From: a plasmid
Assembly: GCF_056746865.1 (NCBI RefSeq)
Contig: NZ_JBWKMP010000007.1
Reading direction: 5' to 3' (one strand)
Length of the DNA stretch: 12,766 bases
In this document: positions 1-12,766 of the stretch, one piece after another
Layout of the letters: each line of letters starts with the position of its first letter
Numbering within the stretch: the stretch's first letter is position 1
Notes under the pieces: model-generated
Told to the model about the DNA's origin: nothing
The model's database searches: none
What the model saw: only the letters and a program-made list of their open reading frames with translations
Made by a program: the position numbers and the translations under genes

Positions 1-260
1 GAGGTATCCGGTAAGCGGCAGGGTCGGAACAGGAGAGCGCACGAGGGAGCTTCCGGGGGGAAACGCCTGGTATCTTTAAGTCCTGTCGGGTTTCGCCACC
101 TCTGACTTGAGCGTCGATTTTTGTGATGCTCGTCAGGGGGGCGGAGCCTATGGAAAAAGCGCCTCCTGCGCGGCCTTTTCTGGGGTCTTCGTTTTTTGCT
201 CACATGTTCTTTCCGGCGTTATCCCCTGATTGTGTGGATAACAGTATCACCGCTTTTGAG
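1..260 (+). other. ColE1-type replication origin, distal part (3' region of the RNA II primer and RNA/DNA switch)
   Basis: Recognised by eye as the pMB1/ColE1 origin segment (ggtatccggtaagcggcagggtcggaacaggagagcgcacgagggagcttcc ... ttttgctcacatgttctttcc). Continues the RNA II region that starts at 12371 if the molecule is circular. RNA/DNA switch estimated near 160-200 by distance (about 555 nt) from the RNA II start. Confidence 0.85.
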
Positions 261-399
261 TGAGCAGACACCGCTCGCCACAGCCGAACGACCGAGCGCA
301 GCGAGTCAGTGAGCGAGGAAGCGGAAGAGCATCGGCATCTGCATGTTCTCCTTACGCATCTGTGCGGCATTTCACACCGTACATGGTGCACTTTTCATA

Positions 400-520
400 C
401 AATCCGCACCGATGCCGCATGACTAAGCCAGTATACACTCCGCTATCGCTACGTGACTGGGTCAGGGCTGCGCCCCGACACCCGCTAAAACCTGCTGACG
501 CGCCCTGACGGGCTTGTCGG
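400..520 (-). promoter_or_regulatory. oriT: bom / oriT (basis of mobility) with candidate nic motif CTGG/CTTA on the minus strand near 424-431
   Basis: Sequence tatacactccgctatcgctacgtgactgggtca...gccccgacacccgc matches the pBR322/ColE1 bom region from memory. The reverse complement of 424-431 (taagccag) is CTGGCTTA, the nic motif I recall for ColE1-type oriT. Lies between ori and rom, as in ColE1. Confidence 0.55.
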
Positions 521-573
521 CTCCCGGCATCCGCTCACAGACAAGCTGTGACCGTCTCCGGGAGCTGCATGTG

Positions 574-765
574 TCAGAGGTTTTCACCGTCATCCCCGAA
601 ACGTGCGAGGCAGCTGCGGTAAAGCTCATCGGCGTGGTCGTGAAGCGATTCACAGATATCTGCCTGTTCATCCGCGTCCAGTTCGTTGAGTTTCTCCAGC
701 AGCGTTAATGTCTGGCCTCTGATGAAGCGGGCCATGTTAAGGGCGGTTTTTTCCTGTTTAGTCAC
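574..765 (-). CDS. rom: Rom/Rop, RNA I-RNA II interaction modulator (63 aa)
   Basis: Translation VTKQEKTALNMARFIRGQTLTLLEKLNELDADEQADICESLHDHADELYRSCLARFGDDGENL is near-identical to Rop as I recall it. GTG start at 765 with GGAGG 7 nt upstream on the minus strand. Confidence 0.9.
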   Translation of the reverse strand: MTKQEKTALNMARFIRGQTLTLLEKLNELDADEQADICESLHDHADELYRSCLARFGDDGENL

Positions 766-796
766 TGATGCCTCCGTGTAAGGGGGATTTCTGTTC

Positions 797-1153
797 ATGG
801 GGGTAATGATACCGATGAAACGCGAGAGGATGCTCACGATACGGGTTACTGATGATGAACATGCCCGGTTACTGGAACGCTGTGAGGGTAAACAACTGGC
901 GGTATGGATGCGGCGGGTCTGCCTGGGGGAGCCGGTTGCCCGTTCCGGGAAGCTGCCGACACTGGCACCGCCGTTACTGCGTCAGCTGGCCGCCATCGGG
1001 AATAACCTGAATCAGACCGCGAGGAAGGTGAACAGCGGGCAGTGGTCTTCCGGTGATCGGGTTCAGGTGGTGGCCGCACTGATGGCCATCGGGGATGAGC
1101 TGCGCCGGCTGCGTCTGGCCGTCAGGGAACAGGGGGCGCGGGATGATAGTTAA
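797..1153 (+). CDS. mbeC: Mobilisation accessory protein MbeC (MobC-like relaxosome component)
   Basis: 118-aa ORF immediately upstream of and overlapping the relaxase gene, in the ColE1 mbeC position. Start codon uncertain (ATG at 797, 806 or 815); purine-rich stretch aagggggga upstream. Confidence 0.75.
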   Translation: MGVMIPMKRERMLTIRVTDDEHARLLERCEGKQLAVWMRRVCLGEPVARSGKLPTLAPPLLRQLAAIGNNLNQTARKVNSGQWSSGDRVQVVAALMAIGDELRRLRLAVREQGARDDS

Positions 1154-2717
1154 ATTTCATGCCAGGGGAAAAGGTGGTGGCAGTGGTCCGGTTGATTACC
1201 TGCTGGGGAGGGAGCGTAACCGCGAAGGCGCAACGGTGCTTCAGGGTAATCCGGAAGAAGTCCGGGAACTCATCGATGCCACGCCATTTGCGAAGAAATA
1301 CACGTCAGGCGTTCTGTCGTTCGCGGAGAAGGAGTTGCCGCCGGGAGGACGTGAAAAAGTGATGGCGAGCTTTGAGCGCGTACTGATGCCAGGTCTCGAA
1401 AAGAATCAGTACAGCATCCTGTGGGTGGAGCACCAGGACAAGGGACGGCTTGAGCTGAATTTTGTCATTCCGAACATGGAGCTACAGACCGGAAAACGTC
1501 TCCAGCCGTACTACGACCGGGCAGACAGGCCGAGAATTGATGCCTGGCAGACGCTGGTGAATCACCATTACGGGCTGCATGACCCCAACGCCCCGGAGAA
1601 CCGCCGGATACTGACTCTCTCTGATAACCTGCCGGAAACGAAACAGGCGCTTGCTGAGAGCGTCACACGCGGGATAGACGCTCTTTATCATGTAGGGGAG
1701 ATAAAAGGCCGTCAGGATGTGATTCAGGCGCTCACAGAGGCGGGGCTTGAAGTGGTCAGGGTGACGCGAAGCAGCATCAGCATTGCAGACCCGAACGGCG
1801 GGAAGAATATCAGGCTGAAAGGAGCGTTTTATGAGCAATCTTTTACAGACGGGCGCGGAGTTCGAGAAAAAGCTGAAAGAGAGAGCCGAATCTACAGAGA
1901 AAGTGCTGAACAACGAGTTCAGGAGGCTCGGCGAATCTGTAAGCGAGGTTGTGACATCAAACGAGACGAAAATCAGAGACGCTATAGCCCTGTTCACAGC
2001 CTCGACAGAGGAATCGCTGGAGAAACACCGGGAAGGGGTGAAAGAGGCGATGAGGCAGCACAGGAAGGACGTGTTAAAGCTGGCAGGGAATACGGGCATG
2101 ATGTTACTGGGGATAGTCTTTCTCCTGTTTACCGCGAGTGGCGGGACGCTCTGGTATCTTGGCGGGAGGATACAGGCGAACCTGGAAGATATCAGGAAGC
2201 AGGAAGAGACATTGCAGAAACTGAACGCGAAGACATGGGGCGTGGAGTTCGTGCAGGACGGGAACAGGAAATTTCTGGTCCTTCCGTACGGGAAATCAGC
2301 AGAGGTGATTCCCTTTCAGGGGAAAGAGTGGGTACATCTGAAGGAGTGACACAGAGTGACAGAGCTGGAAACACATTTGCTGAACGCCTTAGAGCAGCTG
2401 CAACAGGACTATATGCAGCGGCTGAACGAATGGGAGAGCGCCTTCGTGGAATTGCAGAAGATGTTTTCGCTTACGCAACGGGACAACGCGATGCTGAACG
2501 AGCGGGTCATGCAGTTGAGTCAGCAGGTGCAGCACTTGAGCGAGCAGACAGAACACTTGAGCGAGCAGACAGAACACTTGAGCCAGTTATACAGCGAGAG
2601 CAGGAGATAAGGGACGAACTACTGATACAGGAACGTGAACATGAGCTATTCCTAGAGCGTGAGCGCCATCTGGAAATACAGGAACGGACACTGGATGGCC
2701 CGTCGCTGGGATGGTAA
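1143..2717 (+). CDS. mbeA: ColE1-type relaxase MbeA (MobA, HEN/MOB-P family)
   Basis: 524-aa ORF starting MIVKFHARGKGGGSGPVDYLLG with internal ATG at 1143, matching ColE1 MbeA from memory. Contains WVEHQDKGRLELNFV region. Overlaps mbeC 3' end by 11 nt. Confidence 0.9.
   Translation: MIVKFHARGKGGGSGPVDYLLGRERNREGATVLQGNPEEVRELIDATPFAKKYTSGVLSFAEKELPPGGREKVMASFERVLMPGLEKNQYSILWVEHQDKGRLELNFVIPNMELQTGKRLQPYYDRADRPRIDAWQTLVNHHYGLHDPNAPENRRILTLSDNLPETKQALAESVTRGIDALYHVGEIKGRQDVIQALTEAGLEVVRVTRSSISIADPNGGKNIRLKGAFYEQSFTDGRGVREKAERESRIYRESAEQRVQEARRICKRGCDIKRDENQRRYSPVHSLDRGIAGETPGRGERGDEAAQEGRVKAGREYGHDVTGDSLSPVYREWRDALVSWREDTGEPGRYQEAGRDIAETEREDMGRGVRAGREQEISGPSVREISRGDSLSGERVGTSEGVTQSDRAGNTFAERLRAAATGLYAAAERMGERLRGIAEDVFAYATGQRDAERAGHAVESAGAALERADRTLERADRTLEPVIQREQEIRDELLIQEREHELFLERERHLEIQERTLDGPSLGW
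1831..2349 (+). CDS. mbeB: Mobilisation protein MbeB, encoded in the +1 frame inside mbeA
   Basis: 172-aa ORF fully nested in mbeA in another frame, with a hydrophobic segment (MMLLGIVFLLFTASGGTLWYL). Same size and position as ColE1 MbeB as I recall it. Confidence 0.7.
   Translation: MSNLLQTGAEFEKKLKERAESTEKVLNNEFRRLGESVSEVVTSNETKIRDAIALFTASTEESLEKHREGVKEAMRQHRKDVLKLAGNTGMMLLGIVFLLFTASGGTLWYLGGRIQANLEDIRKQEETLQKLNAKTWGVEFVQDGNRKFLVLPYGKSAEVIPFQGKEWVHLKE
2356..2610 (+). CDS. mbeD: Mobilisation protein MbeD (about 9 kDa), nested in the 3' part of mbeA; GTG start
   Basis: 84-codon ORF beginning with GTG at 2356 directly after the mbeB stop (2347-2349). Coiled-coil-like sequence. Position and size match ColE1 mbeD from memory. 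Confidence 0.55.
   Translation: MTELETHLLNALEQLQQDYMQRLNEWESAFVELQKMFSLTQRDNAMLNERVMQLSQQVQHLSEQTEHLSEQTEHLSQLYSESRR
2533..2583. repeat. Perfect 21-bp tandem duplication (cacttgagcgagcagacagaa x2, plus 9-bp partial third copy) inside overlapping mbeA/mbeD
   Basis: Direct reading: units at 2533-2553 and 2554-2574, partial at 2575-2583. In frame in both genes (ERADRTL x2 in MbeA, EQTEHLS x2 in MbeD). Confidence 0.9.
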
Positions 2718-2825
2718 CCAAAGACAGGCTAAAGTGTTGTCAGCGCGTTTCCGGTGCATTTTTTTGGATAATGGTTGGTTCAGGGCACTAGGAACTAGCT
2801 TCAGTCAGGCCTTGCTGAAAACACA

Positions 2826-2961
2826 GGAACGCGTTAAAACGCATACGGACGCGTTTCTGGCGCTCAAAAACCATGGGGTTAGTGTGGGTAGTGTGTATAG
2901 CAACAGGAGCCTGGAACGCGTTCCGCTTCTTCTGTAATCGACGCCAGAATGCGTTTAATGC
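2826..2961. promoter_or_regulatory. Cluster of dyad-symmetric motifs (GGAACGCGTT x2 including perfect palindrome GGAACGCGTTCC; inverted pair gacgcgtttctggcgc / gacgccagaatgcgttt)
   Basis: Direct reading: ggaacgcgtt at 2826-2835 and 2913-2922; gacgcgtttctggcgc at 2848-2863 with inverted partner cgccagaatgcg at 2942-2953. Function unknown; may be protein-binding sites. Confidence 0.3.
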
Positions 2962-3100
2962 TTCTTCTGATGGTATCAGAGAGGAGCTGCTTGAGTTATT
3001 CCTGTTGGCCACAGAGCGTAATTATCTCCTTTTCAGATCCACACGGGGATACGTCAGAATCGGAACTGAGCAAGGATTACTGAAAGATACTGTTTGCCAG

Positions 3101-3125
3101 AAAAAAAATCCTCATACATGATGAG
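3101..3125 (-). terminator. Hairpin followed by T8 on the minus strand (candidate intrinsic terminator for minus-strand transcription leaving the AT-rich island)
   Basis: Plus strand aaaaaaaatcctcatacatgatgaggat: 8-bp stem atcctcat/atgaggat, 5-nt loop. The A8 run on plus becomes a U-tract after the stem on the minus strand. Confidence 0.45.
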
Positions 3126-3420
3126 GATAAAGTCTTAAAGGTCCATTCTATGGAGTGTCGGATTGAAAAATTTCTCCGGATGATATCCTTCACAGTTTAA
3201 ATGTGATTTCAACCATAAGTTTTTTATGGATTTTGTTAAATAAAAAAGAATTGAGTCGTGTTTCTGATATGTCTGAATATAATAAGTGAACAGTTATAAA
3301 ATAATTGTTTTATATTTATTGTGAGTTTGATGTTATGTTCTGCATAAATAACTGTAGTTTAGAATATTATTCTTTTATATTTATAGCTGTGAGATGATAA
3401 ATTATAAGTGTTCTTTGTGC

Positions 3421-3448
3421 TATAAAGAACCCCCCGTATAAGGGGGGG
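3421..3448 (-). terminator. C6/G7 hairpin (ccccccgtataaggggggg) with U-rich tail on the minus strand
   Basis: Stem 3430-3435 / 3442-3448. Minus-strand reading gives the stem followed by ttcttta. Confidence 0.35.
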
Positions 3449-3564
3449 TAAAAGATGGGTTTACTTCTTTTTAGTCCATGCCCTGGTGAGCTACATGAAG
3501 CTCGACACTACAGTAAAGATTTGCAGTTTTTTTGAACTTTACGCAAGCAATTTATTTACATTGT

Positions 3565-3593
3565 AAAGAAAACCCCCTCAATTCCGGAGGGGG
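3565..3593 (-). terminator. Hairpin ccccctc-aattccg-gaggggg with U-tract on the minus strand
   Basis: Stem 3573-3579 / 3587-3593. The plus-strand A-run 3566-3572 becomes ttttctt 3' of the stem on the minus strand. Confidence 0.4.
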
Positions 3594-3898
3594 AGTGTAG
3601 GGAAGTGCCTGATTTATTTTATGTACGCGCAAAAATGAGATAGCTTTTATTAGATATCATCAGCCCTGTCTGCATCAGTCAGCTCCTTACAGCGTCAGGA
3701 GTACTGATGAAGGGGGGGAACGTTCCTGCGTTTTTGCAAAGGCAATCCGGCTAGAGGCTTTACTACGCAGAAACATTCCGGACAACTTTTTACCCCAGTG
3801 TAACTTGTAGATCAACCAGATTTTGTTGCAGTAAAAATACAGTGGTTTCGAATTTGTAACATTTGTCACAAAAATAACATCAATATGTTGGTTTTCTG

Positions 3899-3928
3899 TT
3901 GATAAATGGTTTGGTCGCTGATTATGAT
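3899..3928 (+). promoter_or_regulatory. Sigma70-like promoter candidate (TTGATA, 18-bp spacer, TATGAT)
   Basis: -35 ttgata at 3899-3904; -10 tatgat at 3923-3928. Followed by a leader hairpin gtactcc/ggagtac (3935-3952) that would sequester the AGGAG at 3944-3948. Confidence 0.3.
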
Positions 3929-3992
3929 TTCCTTGTACTCCACAGGAGTACAGTCATGTGCATACTAAAATCCGTGTTTTCGATAAAATTAA

Positions 3993-4020
3993 GGCCGTGA
4001 TACAGAATCACGGCTTTTTT
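3993..4020 (+). terminator. Rho-independent terminator (ggccgtga-tacagaa-tcacggc + T6)
   Basis: 7-8-bp GC-rich stem 3993-4000 / 4008-4014, T-run 4015-4020. Confidence 0.6.
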
Positions 4021-4056
4021 CTTGCCTGAAAGGATCATTTACGCTAGAAGAATTAT

Positions 4057-4119
4057 GAGCGCGTCTCTGGTGTTTGTTGCAGGGATAATATCTAATATGG
4101 GGCACCGGAAACGCGCTCT
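4057..4119. repeat. Dyad module A: 16-bp imperfect inverted repeat (gagcgcgtctctggtg ... caccggaaacgcgctc) around a loop of about 31 nt
   Basis: Direct reading. Paralogous to module B; the arms differ from B by a compensatory change (gcgcg/cgcgc in A versus gcgtg/cacgc in B). Confidence 0.5.
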
Positions 4120-4197
4120 CCCTTCGTATACAGAATGCCCATTAATTTCTTCTTCCTGATTTTCCAGACATATATTCTTGTGTAAATTAAAAAACAG

Positions 4198-4272
4198 AGC
4201 GTGTTTCTGGTGTGAATTTGTTGGCTACAATGTGCATTGTTGTTCTGTGTTCCAGAAACACGCTTCTTTTTT
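4198..4272. repeat. Dyad module B: 13-bp perfect inverted repeat (agcgtgtttctgg ... ccagaaacacgct), loop about 38 nt, A-run upstream and T6 downstream (bidirectional terminator-like)
   Basis: Direct reading: arms 4199-4211 and 4252-4264, T-run 4267-4272, A-run 4190-4195. Confidence 0.5.
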
Positions 4273-4395
4273 GAGATGCACATCGGTCTTATACAAAGAG
4301 GGATGGTTGTATCTGTGTCAGAGTTTTGTTATTTTTTGTATGCTCAGTTATTGATGGTTAATAATATCAAGAAAATCAGCAAGTTCCTTACACTA

Positions 4396-4421
4396 CCCCT
4401 CTTCAGTAGAGGGGTTTTTTT
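4396..4421 (+). terminator. Rho-independent terminator (cccctct-tcagt-agagggg + T7)
   Basis: Stem 4396-4402 / 4408-4414, T-run 4415-4421. Confidence 0.65.
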
Positions 4422-4490
4422 ATCTGGTACGCCGTAAAACCCGGTCCTTCAGGGCGTAGAGGATGTCAAAAATTTCTTCGAAAGGTAATA

Positions 4491-4721
4491 CCCGGTATCC
4501 CGCTCATGCTGGCGAACCCAGACACGCAGGGTCTCTGGCGTACAGCCAATCTTTGGAGCAATGGAACAAATTGCCGCCCATTGTGAGTCATATTCGCCCT
4601 GGCTTTCCAGAACCATACGAACTGCCCGTTGACGGACTTCGGGGGAAAAACGAGTATTTTTAGTCATCCTGTTTACATCTTTCTCAGGAAGTTTAGTCTC
4701 CAGGATTTCCGGGGCGGTTCA
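4491..4721 (-). mobile_element. 5' remnant of an IS3-family element (IS629/IS1203-like): terminal inverted repeat plus the first 59 codons of orfA, truncated
   Basis: Minus-strand ORF 4449..4667 begins [59 protein letters not shown], which matches IS629-type OrfA from memory, then diverges into an unrelated 13-aa tail. The reverse complement of 4690-4721 is the IS-end-like tgaaccgccccggaaatcctggagactaaac. Confidence 0.7.
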
Positions 4722-4949
4722 GTCCGGCAGAGATAAATTGCCACGGGAAGTTAGAGAAAAGTGCGGGAAAATGTCTTAAGAATGATTCTGGAAGAACGAA
4801 AAGTAAGAAGCGCAAAGGCTATGAGGGCAAAAGAGTATCGTGCCGCAGCGAATACTTTTACCTGGCAGCCTGTACAGCGCAGGTGAATAGACATTCCCCT
4901 GACTCATCCTGCTCCCCTTGGCGGCGAAGGGGATTAATCCCTATCCTGT

Positions 4950-5200
4950 AACTTCTATTTTGTGGAATCGAAAACAGCTGAAAATTGTGAAAAAAAACCG
5001 TTTCAGTCGTCTCAGTAAGGAAATTCGCTTGTGATTCACCTGGATGCATAGGTATGCATAAGGTTAAAATTTATCAGGCGCGATCGCGGTAGTTTTTCGG
5101 GGGGGTTGTTGCGATTTTTACCTGTCTGCTGCCGTGATTGCGCTGAATGCATTTCAGCGGTGCGTACAATTAAGGGATTATGGTAAATCCACTTACTGTC
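4950..5200. other. cer: cer-like multimer resolution site with XerC/XerD core ggtgcgtacaa-ttaaggga-ttatggtaaat at 5159-5188
   Basis: Core is identical to the ColE1 cer crossover site as I recall it. Upstream accessory region (gcataaggttaaaatttatcaggcgcgatcgcgg ...) also resembles cer, including paired tgcata half-sites near 5042-5060 (possible ArgR box). Confidence 0.7.
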
Positions 5201-5612
5201 TTCCCTCGTAGCCATCGAGATAAACCGCAGAAATCGTCTCAGCCAGCAGCCTGGATTTTTTCGGGGTAAGGTCTTTGCTGCGGTAATCAGTACCCGCAAA
5301 TTGAGTTGTGCCCCGGAGTGAGTTTAAAAATTCCTGGCTGTGAAACTGCTGAATGCGTTGCTGCACATCACTCCGTGATTTTCCTGTCGCTTTATCCTTT
5401 GCTCCCATATCCCAGAACTGCCGGAAAAAAGGCACCATCATTCGTGTTGTGTCGGCCTTCTGGGTGGAAAAGTTAGGATCAAAACCATCGTCTGATGCAT
5501 AAACGTAATGCCGGGTATGTTGTTCCACACTGCCCTTTGGCGTGCAGGCTGTCAGGACCGTTGCCGCTGTCAGCAGGGCGATAAGATACAGTGTGCCGCC
5601 GGAACGTCTCAT
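5193..5612 (-). CDS. Putative lipoprotein of unknown function (139 aa; signal peptide with lipobox LTAC)
   Basis: N-terminus MRRSGGTLYLIALLTAATVLTAC has a basic n-region, hydrophobic core and L-T-A-C lipobox. Mature protein is hydrophilic. I do not recognise the family. Confidence 0.55.
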   Translation of the reverse strand: MRRSGGTLYLIALLTAATVLTACTPKGSVEQHTRHYVYASDDGFDPNFSTQKADTTRMMVPFFRQFWDMGAKDKATGKSRSDVQQRIQQFHSQEFLNSLRGTTQFAGTDYRSKDLTPKKSRLLAETISAVYLDGYEGRQ

Positions 5613-5695
5613 GAGTGTCTCCTTACCTTTAAATCTTTGTACTCAGTGACTTATATTTAACCGCTGACTATCTTATCATCACTTGCAGTCGGTGC

Positions 5696-6133
5696 TCACC
5701 GGCTGAACAGTCTGGCCCAGAATCCCCGTTTTTTTTCCTGCTCCAGTGCCTGCCTGAGCTGCTCTATCTCTTTATGTAGCTGTTCCCGTTCGGCTTCCTG
5801 GCGCCGGCGTTCCGTAGCCTGTGCCTGTTTGTCCTCAAGCATCAGTGTCAGGCATTGTCTCAGCTCATTCAGCTCCCGGAGAATGCGTTCTGTCTGCTGA
5901 TCATGTGGATTTTCTGCCTGTCCCGCACTGTGCCTTTCTGGTGTCTCATCCTGCTTTAATTCGCCGTATGCCCGGATCAGTTCACTGGTTTCAAACTCCC
6001 GCCGTCCGTCCTGGCCTGTACGATAACTGACAAGGCCTGCGCGCATATCACGGTAAAACTGTGAACGCGATCTGCCTGTCATTTTCAGTGCGTTCTGGAG
6101 TGTGTGCCATGCCATGAAGTGACAGTGTCCCAT
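5696..6133 (-). CDS. Putative small DNA-binding protein with N-terminal helix-turn-helix-like segment and C-terminal coiled coil (start codon ambiguous)
   Basis: AWHTLQNALKMTGRSRSQFYRDMRAGLVSY looks like an HTH. C-terminus RRRQEAEREQLHKEIEQLRQALEQEKKR is a charged heptad-like helix. No strong RBS at any of the three candidate ATGs. Confidence 0.5.
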   Translation of the reverse strand: MGHCHFMAWHTLQNALKMTGRSRSQFYRDMRAGLVSYRTGQDGRREFETSELIRAYGELKQDETPERHSAGQAENPHDQQTERILRELNELRQCLTLMLEDKQAQATERRRQEAEREQLHKEIEQLRQALEQEKKRGFWARLFSR

Positions 6134-6281
6134 TAATGTCTCATATCATGGTTTCAGTAAAACATACTGGGGCCGGAGAACGGTAATGTTTGTGCTGGTT
6201 TTTGTGGCATCGGGTGGGAATAGCACGTGGTGTGGGTGGCTGTTTTTTTGATCGTTTTCACAAAAATGAAAATCCACAGGG

Positions 6282-6346
6282 TTGACAGGGAAAATGCAGC
6301 GGCGTAATTTTAAGCTGTATATAAAACCAGTAGTTATATATACAGT
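6282..6346 (+). promoter_or_regulatory. Colicin SOS promoter: -35 TTGACA (6282-6287), -10 TAATTT (6305-6310), tandem LexA boxes beginning CTGTATATAAAACCAG (6315-6330) and extending to 6346
   Basis: gctgtatataaaaccagtagttatatatacagta matches the dual CTGT-N8-ACAG LexA operator arrangement known for colicin E1-type promoters. RBS agagga lies 7 nt before the ATG at 6393. Confidence 0.8.
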
Positions 6347-6392
6347 ATATTGCTTTTAACTATTTGTTTTTAATGTCAAAGAGGATTTTATA

Positions 6393-7456
6393 ATGGAAAC
6401 AGCTGTAGCGTACTATAAAGATGGTGTTCCTTATGATGATAAGGGGCAGGTAATCATTACTCTTTTGAATGGTAATCCAGACGGGAGTGGCTCTGGCGGC
6501 GGTGGTGGAACTGGAGGTAGCAAAAGTGAAAGTTCTGCAGCCATTCATGCCACAGCTAAATGGTCTACTGCTCAATTGAAGAAAACGCAGGCAGAACAGG
6601 CTGCCCGGGCAAAAGCTGCCGCAGAAGCACAGGCTAAAGCAAAAGCAAACCGGGATGCGCTGACTCAACATCTGAAGGATATTGTGAATGAGGCGCTTCG
6701 TCATAATTCCACTCATCCGGAGGTTATTGACCTGGCTCATGCCAATAATGCAGCGATGCAGGCAGAAGCAGAGCGGTTGCGCCTTGCAAAAGCAGAAGAA
6801 AAAGCCCGTAAAGAAGCGGAAGCTGCGGAAAAGGCTTTTCAGGAGGCAGAACAACGACGCAAAGAGATAGAGAAGGAGCAGGCTGAAACAGAACGCCAGT
6901 TGAAACTGGCTGAAGCTGAAGAGAAACGGCTGGCAGCATTGAATGAAGAGGCCCGGGCAGTGGAGGTGGCACAAAAAAATCTTGCTGCTGCACAATCTGA
7001 GCTGGCGAAAGTGGATGAAGAGATTAAGACTCTCAATACCCGTTTAAGCTCCAGTATTCATGCCCGTGATGCAGAAATGAATACGCTGTCCGGAAAACGA
7101 AATGAGCTGGCTCAGGCATCTGCTAAATATAAGGAACTTGATGAACTGGTCAAAAAATTGTCACCAAGAGCTAATGATCCGCTTCAGAGTCGTCCTTTTT
7201 TCTATGCCACCAGTCGACGGACGGGAGCCGGTAAGATTATGGAGGAAAACAAAAACAGGTAACAGCATCAGAAACGCGTATTAACCAACTTAATGCTGAG
7301 ATAAATGGAATTCAGGGGGCTATGTCTCAGGCTAATAATAATCGTAATACAGCTGTTTTACGTGTTCATGAATCTGAAGAAAATTTGAAAACAGCGCAGA
7401 CTAATCTCCTGAACTCGCAGATTAAGGATGCTGTGGATGCAACAGTTAGCTTTTAT
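6393..7456 (+). pseudogene. cea: Colicin E1-type gene, 5' part (translocation and receptor-binding domains), with a 1-nt frameshift in an A-run (7246-7249) and truncated by the IS21-family insertion at 7456/7457
   Basis: METAVAYYKDGVPYDDKGQVIITLLNGNPDGSGSGGGGG... matches colicin E1 from memory. Frame 0 stops at 7260-7262; the colicin-like reading continues in the -1 frame (VTASETRIN...DAVDATVSFY) to 7456. Confidence 0.85.
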
Positions 7457-7658
7457 TGCAAAATGGCATCTGAATCGATCGCAGTTTGGCATTCGAATCG
7501 ATCATGATTTGGCATCCATCTCCGATCACAGTTTGGCATCACAATCGATCACGATTTGGCATGCTTCCGATCATTGATTGGCATCCTGCCAGTCACTCCG
7601 GGAATTAACTCTTTTCACCACAGTCTCCATTGCCGTGTTTAAACCAGTGGAGACGTCA

Positions 7659-9224
7659 ATGTCCAGAAAGAGAAAATCCAGGAGCACTATGGAAACCTGT
7701 TTTAAGATTCTTCAGCTCAAGTTCGACAAGAAGCTGACTAACCGTTGTATCGGACTGACGTTACACATCAGCGCCTCAACCGTTTTTGAGGTTCTTGCCC
7801 GCTTCAAAGCCTCTTCTCTGTCATGGCCATTACCTGCTGATATATCCCATGACACGCTGGAGAAACTCATTTTTCCGCCCAAAGACACCTTTGCATCAGA
7901 GCTTGTAATGCCTGACATGTTGTACCTCGATACGGAAATGAGAAAACCAGGTGTGACGCGGCAACTGTTGTGGATGGAATACAAGGCACAGGCGGGTAAC
8001 AAAGCGATGGGATACTCGCACTTCTGCCGTTGCTACCGGGAGTGGAAAAAAACGCGACGTCTCTCCATGCGCCAGGAGCATCGTGCCGGCGAAAAGCTTT
8101 TTATCGACTTCTGTGGTCCTACGGTTCCTGTTATTAATCCGGACACCGGTGAGATACGCCGCGTGGCAATCTTCGTGGCCGTAATGGGGGCGTCCAACTA
8201 TACCTACGTTGAAGCGTGCGAAGGTCAGGACATGATGTCATGGTTAAATGCCCACAGCCGTTGCCTGACCTTCCTGGGCGGCGTACCGAAGCTGCTCATC
8301 CCCGATAACCTCAGAAGCGCAGTGAAAAAGGCCGATCGATATGAGCCTGTCATCAACGACAGTTATCAGGCACTGGCTGAGCACTATGGCACGGTTATCA
8401 TCCCGGCCCGACCACGCAAACCTAAAGATAAACCAAAAGCAGAAAACGGCGTCCTCATCGTCGAACGATGGCTTCTTGCCCGCATCCGTAATGAAACCTT
8501 CCACACGCTCAGGGCGCTGAATGCGCGCCTTAGGGAGTTACTGACAGACATGAATAACCGGCCAATGAAGGGGTACGGCAATCAAACCCGTGCAGAACGC
8601 TTCCGCATACTGGATGCGCCAGCACTCTCTCCGCTGCCTCTGGCACCTTATGAATACACGGAATACAAAGCTGTGAAGGTTGGCCCTGACTACCACGTTG
8701 AATATGCCCGTCACTGGTACTCCGTTCCACACGAACTGGTCGGTCAGCGTCTGTCACTGAAGGCGGGGCAGTCGGTGGTACAGCTCTGGCACAAGGGGCA
8801 GTGTGTGGCGCAACATCCGCGCAGCACACATGAATATAAACACACAACCAATCCGCTTCACATGCCAGAGCGCCACCGGCAGCACGGGACATGGACACCG
8901 GAACGCCTGATCGAGCAGGGAAAACGTACGGGCCCGTCCACAGGCCGGGTGGTTGAATCCATGCTGAAGGCAAAACCCCATCCGGAACTGGCTTATCGTG
9001 CAGTTCTGGGGCTGCTGGCACTTCAGAAAAAATACGGCCCGGAACGGCTGGAAAAGGCCTGTTACGTTGCCCTGCACTATAACGCCCCTGACAGACGCTT
9101 TATCGACAATCTGCTGCGTCACCATCGGGAGAACCTGGAGCTTCCATTATCCCGCCAGGGCGAACAACATCCGGCATATGCTTCAGAGCATGAAAACCTG
9201 CGTGGTCCGGGCTACTACCACTGA
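7659..9224 (+). CDS. istA: IS21-family transposase IstA (521 aa)
   Basis: Long ORF with a DDE-type integrase core and the IstA-typical layout; followed 16 nt later by istB. ATG at 7659 preceded by ggag. Confidence 0.85.
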   Translation: MSRKRKSRSTMETCFKILQLKFDKKLTNRCIGLTLHISASTVFEVLARFKASSLSWPLPADISHDTLEKLIFPPKDTFASELVMPDMLYLDTEMRKPGVTRQLLWMEYKAQAGNKAMGYSHFCRCYREWKKTRRLSMRQEHRAGEKLFIDFCGPTVPVINPDTGEIRRVAIFVAVMGASNYTYVEACEGQDMMSWLNAHSRCLTFLGGVPKLLIPDNLRSAVKKADRYEPVINDSYQALAEHYGTVIIPARPRKPKDKPKAENGVLIVERWLLARIRNETFHTLRALNARLRELLTDMNNRPMKGYGNQTRAERFRILDAPALSPLPLAPYEYTEYKAVKVGPDYHVEYARHWYSVPHELVGQRLSLKAGQSVVQLWHKGQCVAQHPRSTHEYKHTTNPLHMPERHRQHGTWTPERLIEQGKRTGPSTGRVVESMLKAKPHPELAYRAVLGLLALQKKYGPERLEKACYVALHYNAPDRRFIDNLLRHHRENLELPLSRQGEQHPAYASEHENLRGPGYYH

Positions 9225-9240
9225 CAGAAGGAACAACAGT

Positions 9241-9996
9241 ATGAGTGATAACCTGTTAAACAAACTGACCCAACTGAAACTCCCGGCGATGGCCGGGAGC
9301 CTGATACGGCAGCGGGAAACGCCTCAGACCTACGACGAACTGTCGTTCGAGGAAAGGCTGACGCTGCTGGTTGATGACGAGCTTCTGAGCAGGGAAAACA
9401 GCCGTGTGGCACGGTTGAGAAAAAATGCCGGCCTGAAATACCAGGCAACACCGGAAGGGCTGCGCTATCCGGCCTCAAGAGGTCTGCGGGCTGAACAGAT
9501 GAGAGAACTGCTGAACGGCCACTACATAACCCACAGGAAAAACCTGCTGATAACCGGTCCGACAGGATGTGGCAAGAGCTGGATAGCCAATGCGCTGGGC
9601 GAACAGGCATGTCGACAGAAACACAGCGTCCGGTACTGTAGAACCGGGCGATTACTGGAACAACTGGCTCAGGGACGTGTTGATGGCAGCTGGCTGAAAT
9701 ATCTGAAACAGTTGCAAAAAATACAGGTTCTAATCCTGGACGATCTGGGGCTGGAACAGTTAAGTAACGCCCAGTGTAATGACCTTCTGGAGCTCATAGA
9801 GGATCGTTACGGACAAAGCAGCACGATAGTGGTAAGCCAGTTCCCGGTAGATAAATGGCATGGTCTGATGGAGAACCCAACAACAGCAGATGCCATCCTG
9901 GACAGACTGGTACATAACTCACACCGGGTGGTCCTTCAGGGAGAGTCACTGAGGAAAAATCCCCCGGTAGTGGAAAGCAGCGAAAAAACGCGTTAA
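9241..9996 (+). CDS. istB: IS21-family helper ATPase IstB (251 aa)
   Basis: Walker A GPTGCGKS and Walker B VLILDDLG motifs. RBS gaagga upstream of the ATG at 9241. Confidence 0.9.
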   Translation: MSDNLLNKLTQLKLPAMAGSLIRQRETPQTYDELSFEERLTLLVDDELLSRENSRVARLRKNAGLKYQATPEGLRYPASRGLRAEQMRELLNGHYITHRKNLLITGPTGCGKSWIANALGEQACRQKHSVRYCRTGRLLEQLAQGRVDGSWLKYLKQLQKIQVLILDDLGLEQLSNAQCNDLLELIEDRYGQSSTIVVSQFPVDKWHGLMENPTTADAILDRLVHNSHRVVLQGESLRKNPPVVESSEKTR

Positions 9997-10095
9997 AAAG
10001 CGGTAGAAAAAGTTAAGTTCCCGGTTGATCGAATGGATGCGAATCGCTGATCGGACTTCGATGCCAATCCGTGATCGAATAGAGCGGAATACGCA

Positions 10096-10593
10096 CTTTT
10101 ATCAAACGCTATCTGAAAAATATGGTGAAAAATATTCAAAAATGGCACAGGAACTTGCTGATAAGTCTAAAGGTAAGAAAATCAGCAATGTGAATGAAGC
10201 TCTAGCTGCTTTTGAAAAATACAAGGATGTTTTAAATAAGAAATTCAGCAAAGCAGACCGTGATGCGATTTTCAATGCACTGGAATCGGTTAAGTATGAA
10301 GACTGGGCTAAGCATTTAGATCAGTTTGCTAAGTACTTGAAGATTACGGGACATGTTTCTTTTGGATATGATGTGGTATCTGATATCCTAAAAATTAAGG
10401 ATACAGGTGACTGGAAGCCACTATTTCTTACATTAGAGAAGAAAACTGTAGATGCTGGAGTTAGTTATATTGTTTTAGTGTGCTTGCTGGAACTACATTA
10501 GGTATCTGGGGGATTGCTATTGTTACAGGCATTCTATGTGCCTTTATTGACAAGAATAAACTTAATACTATAAATGATGTGTTGGGTATTTAA
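10096..10593 (+). pseudogene. cea: Colicin E1-type gene, 3' part (pore-forming domain), carrying a roughly 10-nt deletion/frameshift near 10473 in the hydrophobic helical hairpin
   Basis: [28 protein letters not shown]...[20 protein letters not shown] matches the colicin E1 channel domain from memory. Frame stops at 10499-10501; the remaining C-terminus ([35 protein letters not shown]) is in another frame ending at 10591-10593. Confidence 0.8.
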
Positions 10594-10931
10594 TTATTCT
10601 TTATTGATATAAACAGTCCTAGCAATCCAAATGGGATTGCTAGGACCAAACAAAGTAGATTGTATAGCATAAATAGGTTTAATTTTGCCACGGGGGCATT
10701 ATTTAGATTTTTTCTTTTTCTGAAAAAATCTTTCTTTATGAACTTAAAAAATATGTGTTCAATAGCATATTTTGAATATGGGCATAGAATAGTGCTTATC
10801 ACGATTGCGTATAGCATCTTATCTGACGCTAGGAAATAATACCCTTCGTTGTTTTTTGTTATAAGGTATATATATATAAGTGTGCAATATAGGCCAAACA
10901 AAATGTTTTTTATGTAGTATCTTAAACTCAT
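10590..10931 (-). CDS. imm: Colicin E1 immunity protein (113 aa, integral membrane), intact
   Basis: [113 protein letters not shown] matches ColE1 Imm from memory. Convergent with cea. Confidence 0.9.
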
Positions 10932-10978
10932 AAATTAAACCTCGTTATATATTCTTTTCATTTTATAAGGATCGAGTT

Positions 10979-11040
10979 ATGAGGAAAAGATTTTTTGTGG
11001 GAATATTAGCTATAAACCTCCTTGTTGGATGTCAGGCTAA
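10979..11040 (+). pseudogene. kil: Colicin lysis (release) lipoprotein gene, 5' part (MRKRFFVGILAINLLVGCQA...), interrupted by IS5 after codon 20
   Basis: RBS taagga; signal peptide with lipobox LVGC as in ColE1 Kil. Reading frame enters the IS5 end at 11041. Confidence 0.8.
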
Positions 11041-12235
<1,195 letters not shown>

Positions 12236-12315
12236 CTAACTATATACGTGATGTTCAGGGAGGGACTGTGGCTCCATCATCTTCTTCTAAACTGACGGGG
12301 ATCTCTGTTCAGTAG
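12236..12315 (+). pseudogene. kil: Colicin lysis lipoprotein gene, 3' part (...[25 protein letters not shown])
   Basis: Continues the kil frame across the CTAA duplication; stop at 12313-12315. Confidence 0.8.
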
Positions 12316-12334
12316 AAAAGATCAAAGGATCTTC

Positions 12335-12363
12335 TTGAGATCCTTTTTTTCTGCGCGTAATCT
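12335..12363 (+). promoter_or_regulatory. RNA II (primer) promoter: -35 TTGAGA, 17-bp spacer, -10 TAATCT
   Basis: Positionally and sequence-wise equivalent to the ColE1/pMB1 RNA II promoter (ttgagatcctttttttctgcgcgtaatctgctgc). Confidence 0.7.
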
Positions 12364-12370
12364 GCTGCCT

Positions 12371-12766
12371 GTAAACGAAAAAACCGCCTGGGGAGGCGGT
12401 TTGATCGAAGGTTAAGTCAGTTGGGGAACTGCTTAACCGAGGTAACTGGCTTCAGCAGAGCGCAGATACCAAATACTGTCCTTCCAGTGTAGCCGTAGTC
12501 GGGCCACTACTTCAAGAACTCTGTTGCACCATTTGCGCCATCATCGCTCTGCTAACCAAGTTACCAACGGCTGCTGCCAGTGGCGCTTTGTCGTGTCTTA
12601 CCGGGTTGGACTCAAGACGATAGTTACCGGATAAGGCGCAGCGGTCGGGCTGAACGGGGGGTTCGTGCACACAGCCCAGCTTGGAGCGAACGACCTACAC
12701 CGAACTGAGATACCAACAGCGTGAGCTATGAGAAAGCGCCACGCTTCCCGAAGGGAGAAAGGCGGA
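12371..12766 (+). ncRNA. RNAII: RNA II replication primer precursor, 5' portion (continues into 1-about 160 if circular)
   Basis: Homology by eye to the ColE1 RNA II 5' region, with stem-loops such as ccgcctggggaggcgg (12384-12399). Downstream sequence is near-identical to pMB1 (ggtaactggcttcagcagagcgcagataccaaatactgtcctt...). Confidence 0.75.
12372..12479 (-). ncRNA. RNAI: RNA I antisense copy-number control RNA (about 108 nt)
   Basis: Complement of the first roughly 108 nt of RNA II. The minus strand begins acagtatttggtatctgcgctctgctgaagccagttacc as in pMB1 RNA I, and ends in a stem-loop plus U-tract (complement of aaaaaaccgcctggggaggcgg). Confidence 0.7.

Follow-up and report, generated by a model that had tools for sequence, protein, structure and literature searches.

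Does the colicin gene of this plasmid carry a genuine lesion in the hydrophobic hairpin of its channel domain, and what has that lesion done to the gene? The question arises from an earlier note, which read the channel domain in two frames and proposed that a small out-of-frame deletion had removed about three residues of the hairpin. The window, by which we mean the whole stretch of 12,766 nucleotides analysed, is a complete circular plasmid (window 1-12766) whose ends join seamlessly in an 8,899-bp reference. Whole-window megablast against complete E. coli genomes and PLSDB, followed by local BLAST against the fetched loci, resolves it into an 8,899-bp ColE1-type mobilisable plasmid plus an IS21-family element and an IS5. 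The 8,899-bp plasmid is represented by three records, all IS-free: p2_020022 (NZ_CP032881.1, China), pMTY1886_untypable_2 (NZ_CP128975.1, Japan) and AP026459.1. Neither PLSDB nor the complete E. coli genomes contain the form with both insertions. With the IS elements set aside, the backbone, on which annotation and Pfam place MbeA, MobC and Rop, departs from NZ_CP128975.1 by 2 SNPs, one additional 21-nt repeat unit and one additional G. The additional unit, CACTTGAGCGAGCAGACAGAA, is an extra in-frame copy of a tandem repeat at window 2533-2553 and encodes a LERADRT-type repeat in the C-terminal part of the MbeA relaxase ORF; the additional G lies in a G-run near 3712.

The plasmid has the layout of a colicin operon, in which a colicin gene is followed by a convergent immunity gene and a downstream lysis gene on a ColE1-type Mob backbone. 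The colicin gene itself is present in two pieces:

6393-7456, plus strand: 5' fragment of the colicin gene, codons 1-355 of 521, 100% identical to the colicin pseudogene of NZ_CP032881.1 and cut by the IS21-family insertion.
10103-10593, plus strand: 3' fragment of the colicin gene, covering the channel domain (Q356 onward, native stop included), with 100% identity to the 8,899-bp plasmids.

Membership of the E1-type pore-forming colicins is defined by a C-terminal ten-helix channel domain of ~180 aa homologous to that of colicin E1. The family of this gene is assigned through its intact allele, a single 1,566-nt ORF encoding the ‘colicin-like pore-forming protein’ WP_000447001.1, to which the window DNA of the channel domain is identical save for one gap. 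The C-terminal 202 aa of the intact product match the colicin E1 channel-domain structure PDB 2I88 (E=3.9e-114), and the Pfam channel domain PF01024 is matched with E=5.5e-34; NCBIfam gave no match for the intact colicin, immunity or lysis protein. Alignment of the 5' fragment to the intact gene gives 1 SNP and 1 single-base gap.

The proposed deletion is borne out by alignment and can be defined to the base. Relative to the intact 521-aa allele WP_000447001.1, as carried for example by pSMS35_8, exactly 10 nt (TTGTTTTACT) are missing from the window, where ATATTG is followed directly by TTTTAGTG; in the intact allele, TTGTTTTACT separates the two. In codons, the intact allele is GTT AGT TAT ATT GTT GTT TTA CTT TTT AGT GTG (V S Y I V V L L F S V) and the window is GTTAGTTATATTG-TTTTAGTG. 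V480-L481-L482 of the 521-aa allele plus one base have been lost from helix 8 (H8), in agreement with the estimate of about three residues. Aligning prototype ColE1 cea, the check that had been suggested, returns the identical single 10-nt gap, and the apter reference is the E1 variant, whose product is 89% identical to Cea. Three-frame translation of 10001-10620 reproduces the two-frame reading, with both channel-domain frames recognisable as colicin E1-type. The features around the junction are as follows:

10472-10475, plus strand: 10-nt deletion junction, from the alignments; a TT microhomology allows the gap to be placed after 10472, 10473 or 10474.
10499-10501, plus strand: TAG stop of the upstream frame (the frame of codon 10460-62), reached after 8 out-of-frame codons, LVCLLELH*.
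10474-10593, plus strand: orphaned native-frame tail, F483-I521 and TAA, encoding the remainder of H8 with H9 and H10, free of substitutions relative to the intact allele.

The frame of codon 10462-64 runs on to the TAA at 10591-10593. The earlier note had this downstream frame right, but began its quotation at AGTTLG, four residues after the native frame resumes at F483 (FSVLAG...). That frame is undegraded, as had been noted: across the 945-nt colicin/immunity/lysis segment at 10096-11040, local BLAST against pSMS35_8 gives 0 mismatches besides the gap, so that chance coincidence is no concern for the deletion. A terminator/promoter scan of 10096-11040 detected no site at the deletion and no sign of an effect on imm expression signals.

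The position of the loss within the hairpin follows from the colicin E1 literature, in which D473 lies in H8, C505 lies in H9 and the uncharged hydrophobic segment corresponds roughly to the H8-H9 hairpin (PMC2585860). As the variant is one residue shorter than Cea, its residues 480-482 equate to E1 481-483 and thus fall mid-helix 8. On its own, the 10-nt deletion would be predicted to yield a 487-aa product consisting of 479 native residues followed by LVCLLELH, without most of H8 and all of H9 and H10. Pore-forming colicins vary in this region, with hydrophobic segments that span 31-49 residues (PMC2585860), so that some length variation is tolerated across the family, which would leave room for a natural in-frame length variant of the hairpin and a functional, shorter colicin. 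A gap of 10 nt is not a multiple of 3, however; a TAG follows after 8 codons; and the 10 nt are retained in all other full-length matches to a probe spanning the junction (54 E. coli-genome and 65 PLSDB records, in the 80-90% identity band). With aa 480-482 gone and the frame shifted, the window copy does not encode an uninterrupted H8-H9 hairpin, and a functional in-frame variant has practically no chance of being the right reading.

The same alignments uncovered a second lesion of non-IS origin, missed by the earlier note, well upstream of the channel domain:

7243-7246, plus strand: A4 run that is A5 in intact alleles (gene nt 854, codon 285); the first frameshift, from alignment to the intact gene.
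7260-7262, plus strand: premature TAA resulting from the 1-nt deletion; ORF 6393-7262, product ...GKIMEENKNR*, 289 aa.

The position of this stop means that the hairpin would go untranslated even without the IS, including in the IS-free plasmids. The earlier claim that the hairpin lesion truncates the pore-forming helices irrespective of the IS insertion thus holds for the 10-nt deletion taken alone, but translation of the actual gene never reaches the hairpin. Owing to this stop and to the IS at 7457-10095, the three colicin domains (translocation, receptor-binding, channel) are no longer joined in a single continuous ORF. A site probe with 150 matching E. coli records detected the A5-to-A4 loss in the 8,899-bp plasmids and in no others; the two metagenome contigs with the 10-nt deletion share it, so that every known carrier of the 10-nt deletion also has the A5-to-A4 loss. 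Records with only one of the two small deletions are absent from the complete E. coli genomes, PLSDB and the metagenome carriers. Since no record carries just one, the data are compatible with either order, and the 10-nt deletion may have inactivated the gene in the first place or may have accumulated neutrally once the upstream frameshift was there.

Consistent co-occurrence of two frameshifts could also suggest coupling, in which the two deletions compensate for one another or a programmed ribosomal frameshift restores full-length colicin. The arithmetic is against the former: the deletions total -11 nt, a number not divisible by 3, and the frame entered after the first stops 5 codons on, at 7260-7262, 580 nt ahead of the second. 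In the window, the IS additionally lies between the two sites. A programmed frameshift is no better placed, as direct reading of the 0-frame at the junction (T GTT TTA) reveals no X XXY YYZ slippery heptamer, and the upstream stop and IS intervene in any case. We therefore assign a negligible probability to restored full-length synthesis.

The distribution of the 10-nt deletion was assessed using an 80-nt probe centred on the junction against 5,426 complete E. coli genomes and against PLSDB. The complete genomes contain the deletion allele at 100% identity in NZ_CP032881.1 and NZ_CP128975.1, and PLSDB contains it in these two and in AP026459.1; the full 945-nt segment, junction included, is 100% identical to all three. 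An exact scan of metagenome contigs with the 37-nt junction identified two further carriers, SKEX01001018.1 and OKVV01001113.1. Both are without either IS, both differ from the window elsewhere by SNPs and indels, and one has a differing mob-region backbone. The 1,555-nt colicin pseudogene of SKEX01001018.1 is identical. An exact-junction scan of one-genome-per-species contigs gave no match, as expected from a set in which E. coli has a single representative.

These records bear directly on the concern that the lesion is a sequencing or assembly artefact and that the real plasmid has the 10 nt. The companion upstream lesion falls in a homopolymer (A5 to A4), a typical site of long-read error, which lends the concern some weight. 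The 10-nt loss lies outside a homopolymer, where it would be an atypical read error, and the identical junction recurs in three database plasmids from two countries and in two metagenome contigs that differ elsewhere. An artefact is extremely improbable on this evidence. We consider it very likely that the 10-nt deletion is a loss-of-function lesion, fixed and inherited, in the toxin gene of a colicin E1 variant. The hallmarks of a frameshift pseudogene are all found here, namely an intact reference allele, an indel that is not a multiple of 3, a premature stop, and the same lesion in independent sequences. The lesion is also already known, in that PGAP labels the colicin CDS of the 8,899-bp plasmids a ‘frameshifted’ pseudogene; it is present and flagged in public records as an ordinary inherited pseudogene lesion. 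A literature search on this specific colicin pseudogene found nothing specific.

The 80-nt probe also returned 126 chromosomal matches of at least 99% identity, which were rejected as further carriers because they cover only a 33-42-nt fragment (window 10480-10521) and do not span the junction. They mark a decayed, integrated ColE1-like plasmid relic in ~126 E. coli chromosomes, including CFT073, ATCC 25922 and UPEC 26-1. In CFT073 (NZ_CP158446.1, 3216789-3222821), the relic has Exc2 in frameshifted form, and its colicin codons 1-72 are joined to 42 nt from the hairpin-coding region. Only 5-8 nt separate the breakpoint of this fusion from the window deletion junction, possibly by coincidence, possibly because the T-rich spot is fragile. 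Separately, SKEX01001018.1 carries the double-deleted pseudogene within 2849-11673, alongside a diverged mob region whose mismatches fall mostly in window 1-2750 and 2.8 kb of additional sequence, part of which has 85% similarity to the same plasmid; the contig represents a plasmid formed by recombination or cointegration, or else an assembly chimera.

How the 10 nt were lost can be approached from the sequence around the gap. In the intact allele, a search for direct repeats flanking the deletion detected none of at least 6 nt. The surroundings are T-rich, with only the TT microhomology and short repeats (TTG TTG; TTTTA..TTTTA) seen by eye. The composition of the junction points to slippage or microhomology as the probable mechanism: a single replication or repair error in the T-rich stretch, acting where ATATTG precedes and TTTTAG follows TTGTTTTACT with 2-nt TT microhomology at the ends, may have removed the 10 bp. 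The short repeats would equally accommodate two slippage steps, one reducing TTG TTG to TTG (-3) and the other reducing TTTTA-CT-TTTTA to TTTTA (-7). The intact ATA TTG TTG TTTTA CT TTTTA G does offer a tandem TTG as well as a direct repeat of 5 nt at 7-nt spacing; the expected product, ATA TTG TTTTA G, fits the window. No allele with only the -3 or only the -7 step occurs in the 5,426 complete E. coli genomes or PLSDB, however, where the 90-99% identity band is empty, and one event is more parsimonious than two. The two-step route is thus unlikely, and a single microhomology or slippage event is the simplest mechanism. Three helix-8 codons were lost and the frame was shifted, such that the H8-H9 hairpin and H10, which anchor and line the channel, can no longer be made.

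The remaining damage to the operon is due to two insertions, and the immunity gene is spared:

7457-10095, plus strand: IS21-family element, 2,639 bp (istA 7578-9224, istB 9241-9996), delimited by backbone alignment breakpoints; splits the colicin gene after codon 355.
10590-10931, minus strand: immunity gene, intact, 113 aa, identical to WP_000058758.1 (Pfam PF03526, E=3e-35); converges on the colicin gene with a 4-nt overlap.
10979-11040, plus strand: first 62 nt of the lysis (release) gene, mapped from the CDS at 6701-6838 of locus L003; interrupted by IS5.
11041-12235, plus strand: IS5, 1,195 bp (Pfam DDE_Tnp_1, DUF772), with a 4-bp target duplication, CTAA, at 11037-11040 and 12236-12239.
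12236-12315, plus strand: 3' remainder of the lysis gene after IS5, from the alignment of 12236-12766 to L003 6759-7289.

The IS21-family element is flanked by a 7-bp target duplication, CTTTTAT, at 7450-7456 and 10096-10102, and its Pfam matches are IstB_IS21 (istB, E=1e-60), rve and Mu-transpos_C_2. The insertion has created a predicted 158-aa fusion ORF at 10025-10501, which reads from within the right end of this element through the target duplication into the channel domain and stops at the frameshift TAG. An inverted repeat with a 15-bp stem at 10614-10648, which resembles a terminator on the minus strand, falls within the 3' end of the immunity ORF, shortly past the colicin stop.

The colicin gene of the window is accordingly a pseudogene with three lesions (the 1-nt deletion, the IS21-family insertion and the 10-nt deletion), the lysis gene carries one and the immunity gene carries none. 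Judged from these lesions, toxin activity has presumably been lost. The intact lysis product, of 45 aa, matches PF02402 (E=7e-32), and IS5 renders the window copy a pseudogene, so that toxin release is knocked out independently of the toxin gene. The intact immunity gene probably retains its function, and its survival beside broken colicin and lysis genes makes the plasmid look immunity-only.

The IS-free plasmids allow these lesions to be partly ordered. Both small deletions are already present in these plasmids, which otherwise differ very little from the window, and parsimony therefore places the small deletions before both IS insertions. The 10-nt deletion probably arose in an ancestral 8.9-kb ColE1-type mobilisable plasmid, coupled there with the A5-to-A4 loss at codon 285. 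The resulting dead-toxin, live-immunity plasmid would then have spread, and the window lineage would later have gained the IS21-family element in its colicin gene and IS5 in its lysis gene. This history qualifies the earlier description of the lesion as recent: the absence of later substitutions agrees with it, but the lesion predates both IS elements and already circulates in IS-free plasmids in China and Japan. Expression of colicin and lysis proteins is costly, and an immunity-only outcome is expected from that cost. The resulting plasmid would avoid the lethal cost of colicin production and lysis while still encoding immunity, which may confer a selective benefit. Two more adventurous readings can be framed. 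In the first, read-out from the right end of the IS21-family element perhaps drives separate expression of the orphaned 3' tail as a hydrophobic peptide of ~37 aa (start GTG at 10480; the rest of H8, H9 and H10), which might have a membrane activity or titrate out the immunity protein. In the second, more modest one, the four independent lesions in cea and kil, none of them in imm, are the signature of an ‘immunity-only cheater’ plasmid lineage that is under positive selection and circulates internationally. We regard these as very unlikely.

Comparison with known systems places the locus within a recognised pattern. With prototype colicin E1 (cea; WP_000447006.1, pSF-468-3), the variant shares the three-domain architecture and the operon of cea, imm on the opposite strand and lysis gene, with few differences in the hairpin. 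It is not a near-identical cea: protein identity to Cea is 89% (464/522) and DNA identity in the central region is ~86%. RefSeq names true cea apart from the ‘colicin-like pore-forming protein’, and PGAP does not name the variant ‘cea’. In GenBank, the variant is often mislabelled ‘colicin-10’. An E1 variant ~86% identical to the prototype, with the database label ‘colicin 10’ or ‘colicin E1’, has been described previously (PMC6723558). The same surveys of E. coli found truncated colicin genes to be common, with premature stops and persisting immunity genes, although the particular allele and deletion reported here are absent from that description of broken colicin genes (PMC6723558). A plasmid of this kind would be miscalled ‘colicin E1/10 positive’ by in-silico colicin typing, and the main value of the present analysis is correct annotation, together with a clean case of stepwise decay of a toxin/lysis module in which immunity is kept. 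The locus is consistent with established cost-of-colicin ideas and involves no new mechanism.

Among the closest relatives, the 8,909/8,910-bp plasmids (pSMS35_8, NC_010485.1; pMTY9803_untypable2; many chicken isolates) carry the intact variant gene in the same operon layout and belong to the same plasmid family. Unlike the window, they retain the 10 nt and the fifth A and encode one 1,566-nt ORF. The 8,899-bp plasmids lack the IS21-family element and IS5, and their mob region is shorter by one copy of the 21-nt repeat; NZ_CP128975.1 differs from the window by 2 SNPs and 2 small indels. In their pseudogene, both colicin fragments are base-for-base those of the window, including the 10-nt and A5-to-A4 deletions, alongside the same imm, lysis gene and backbone.
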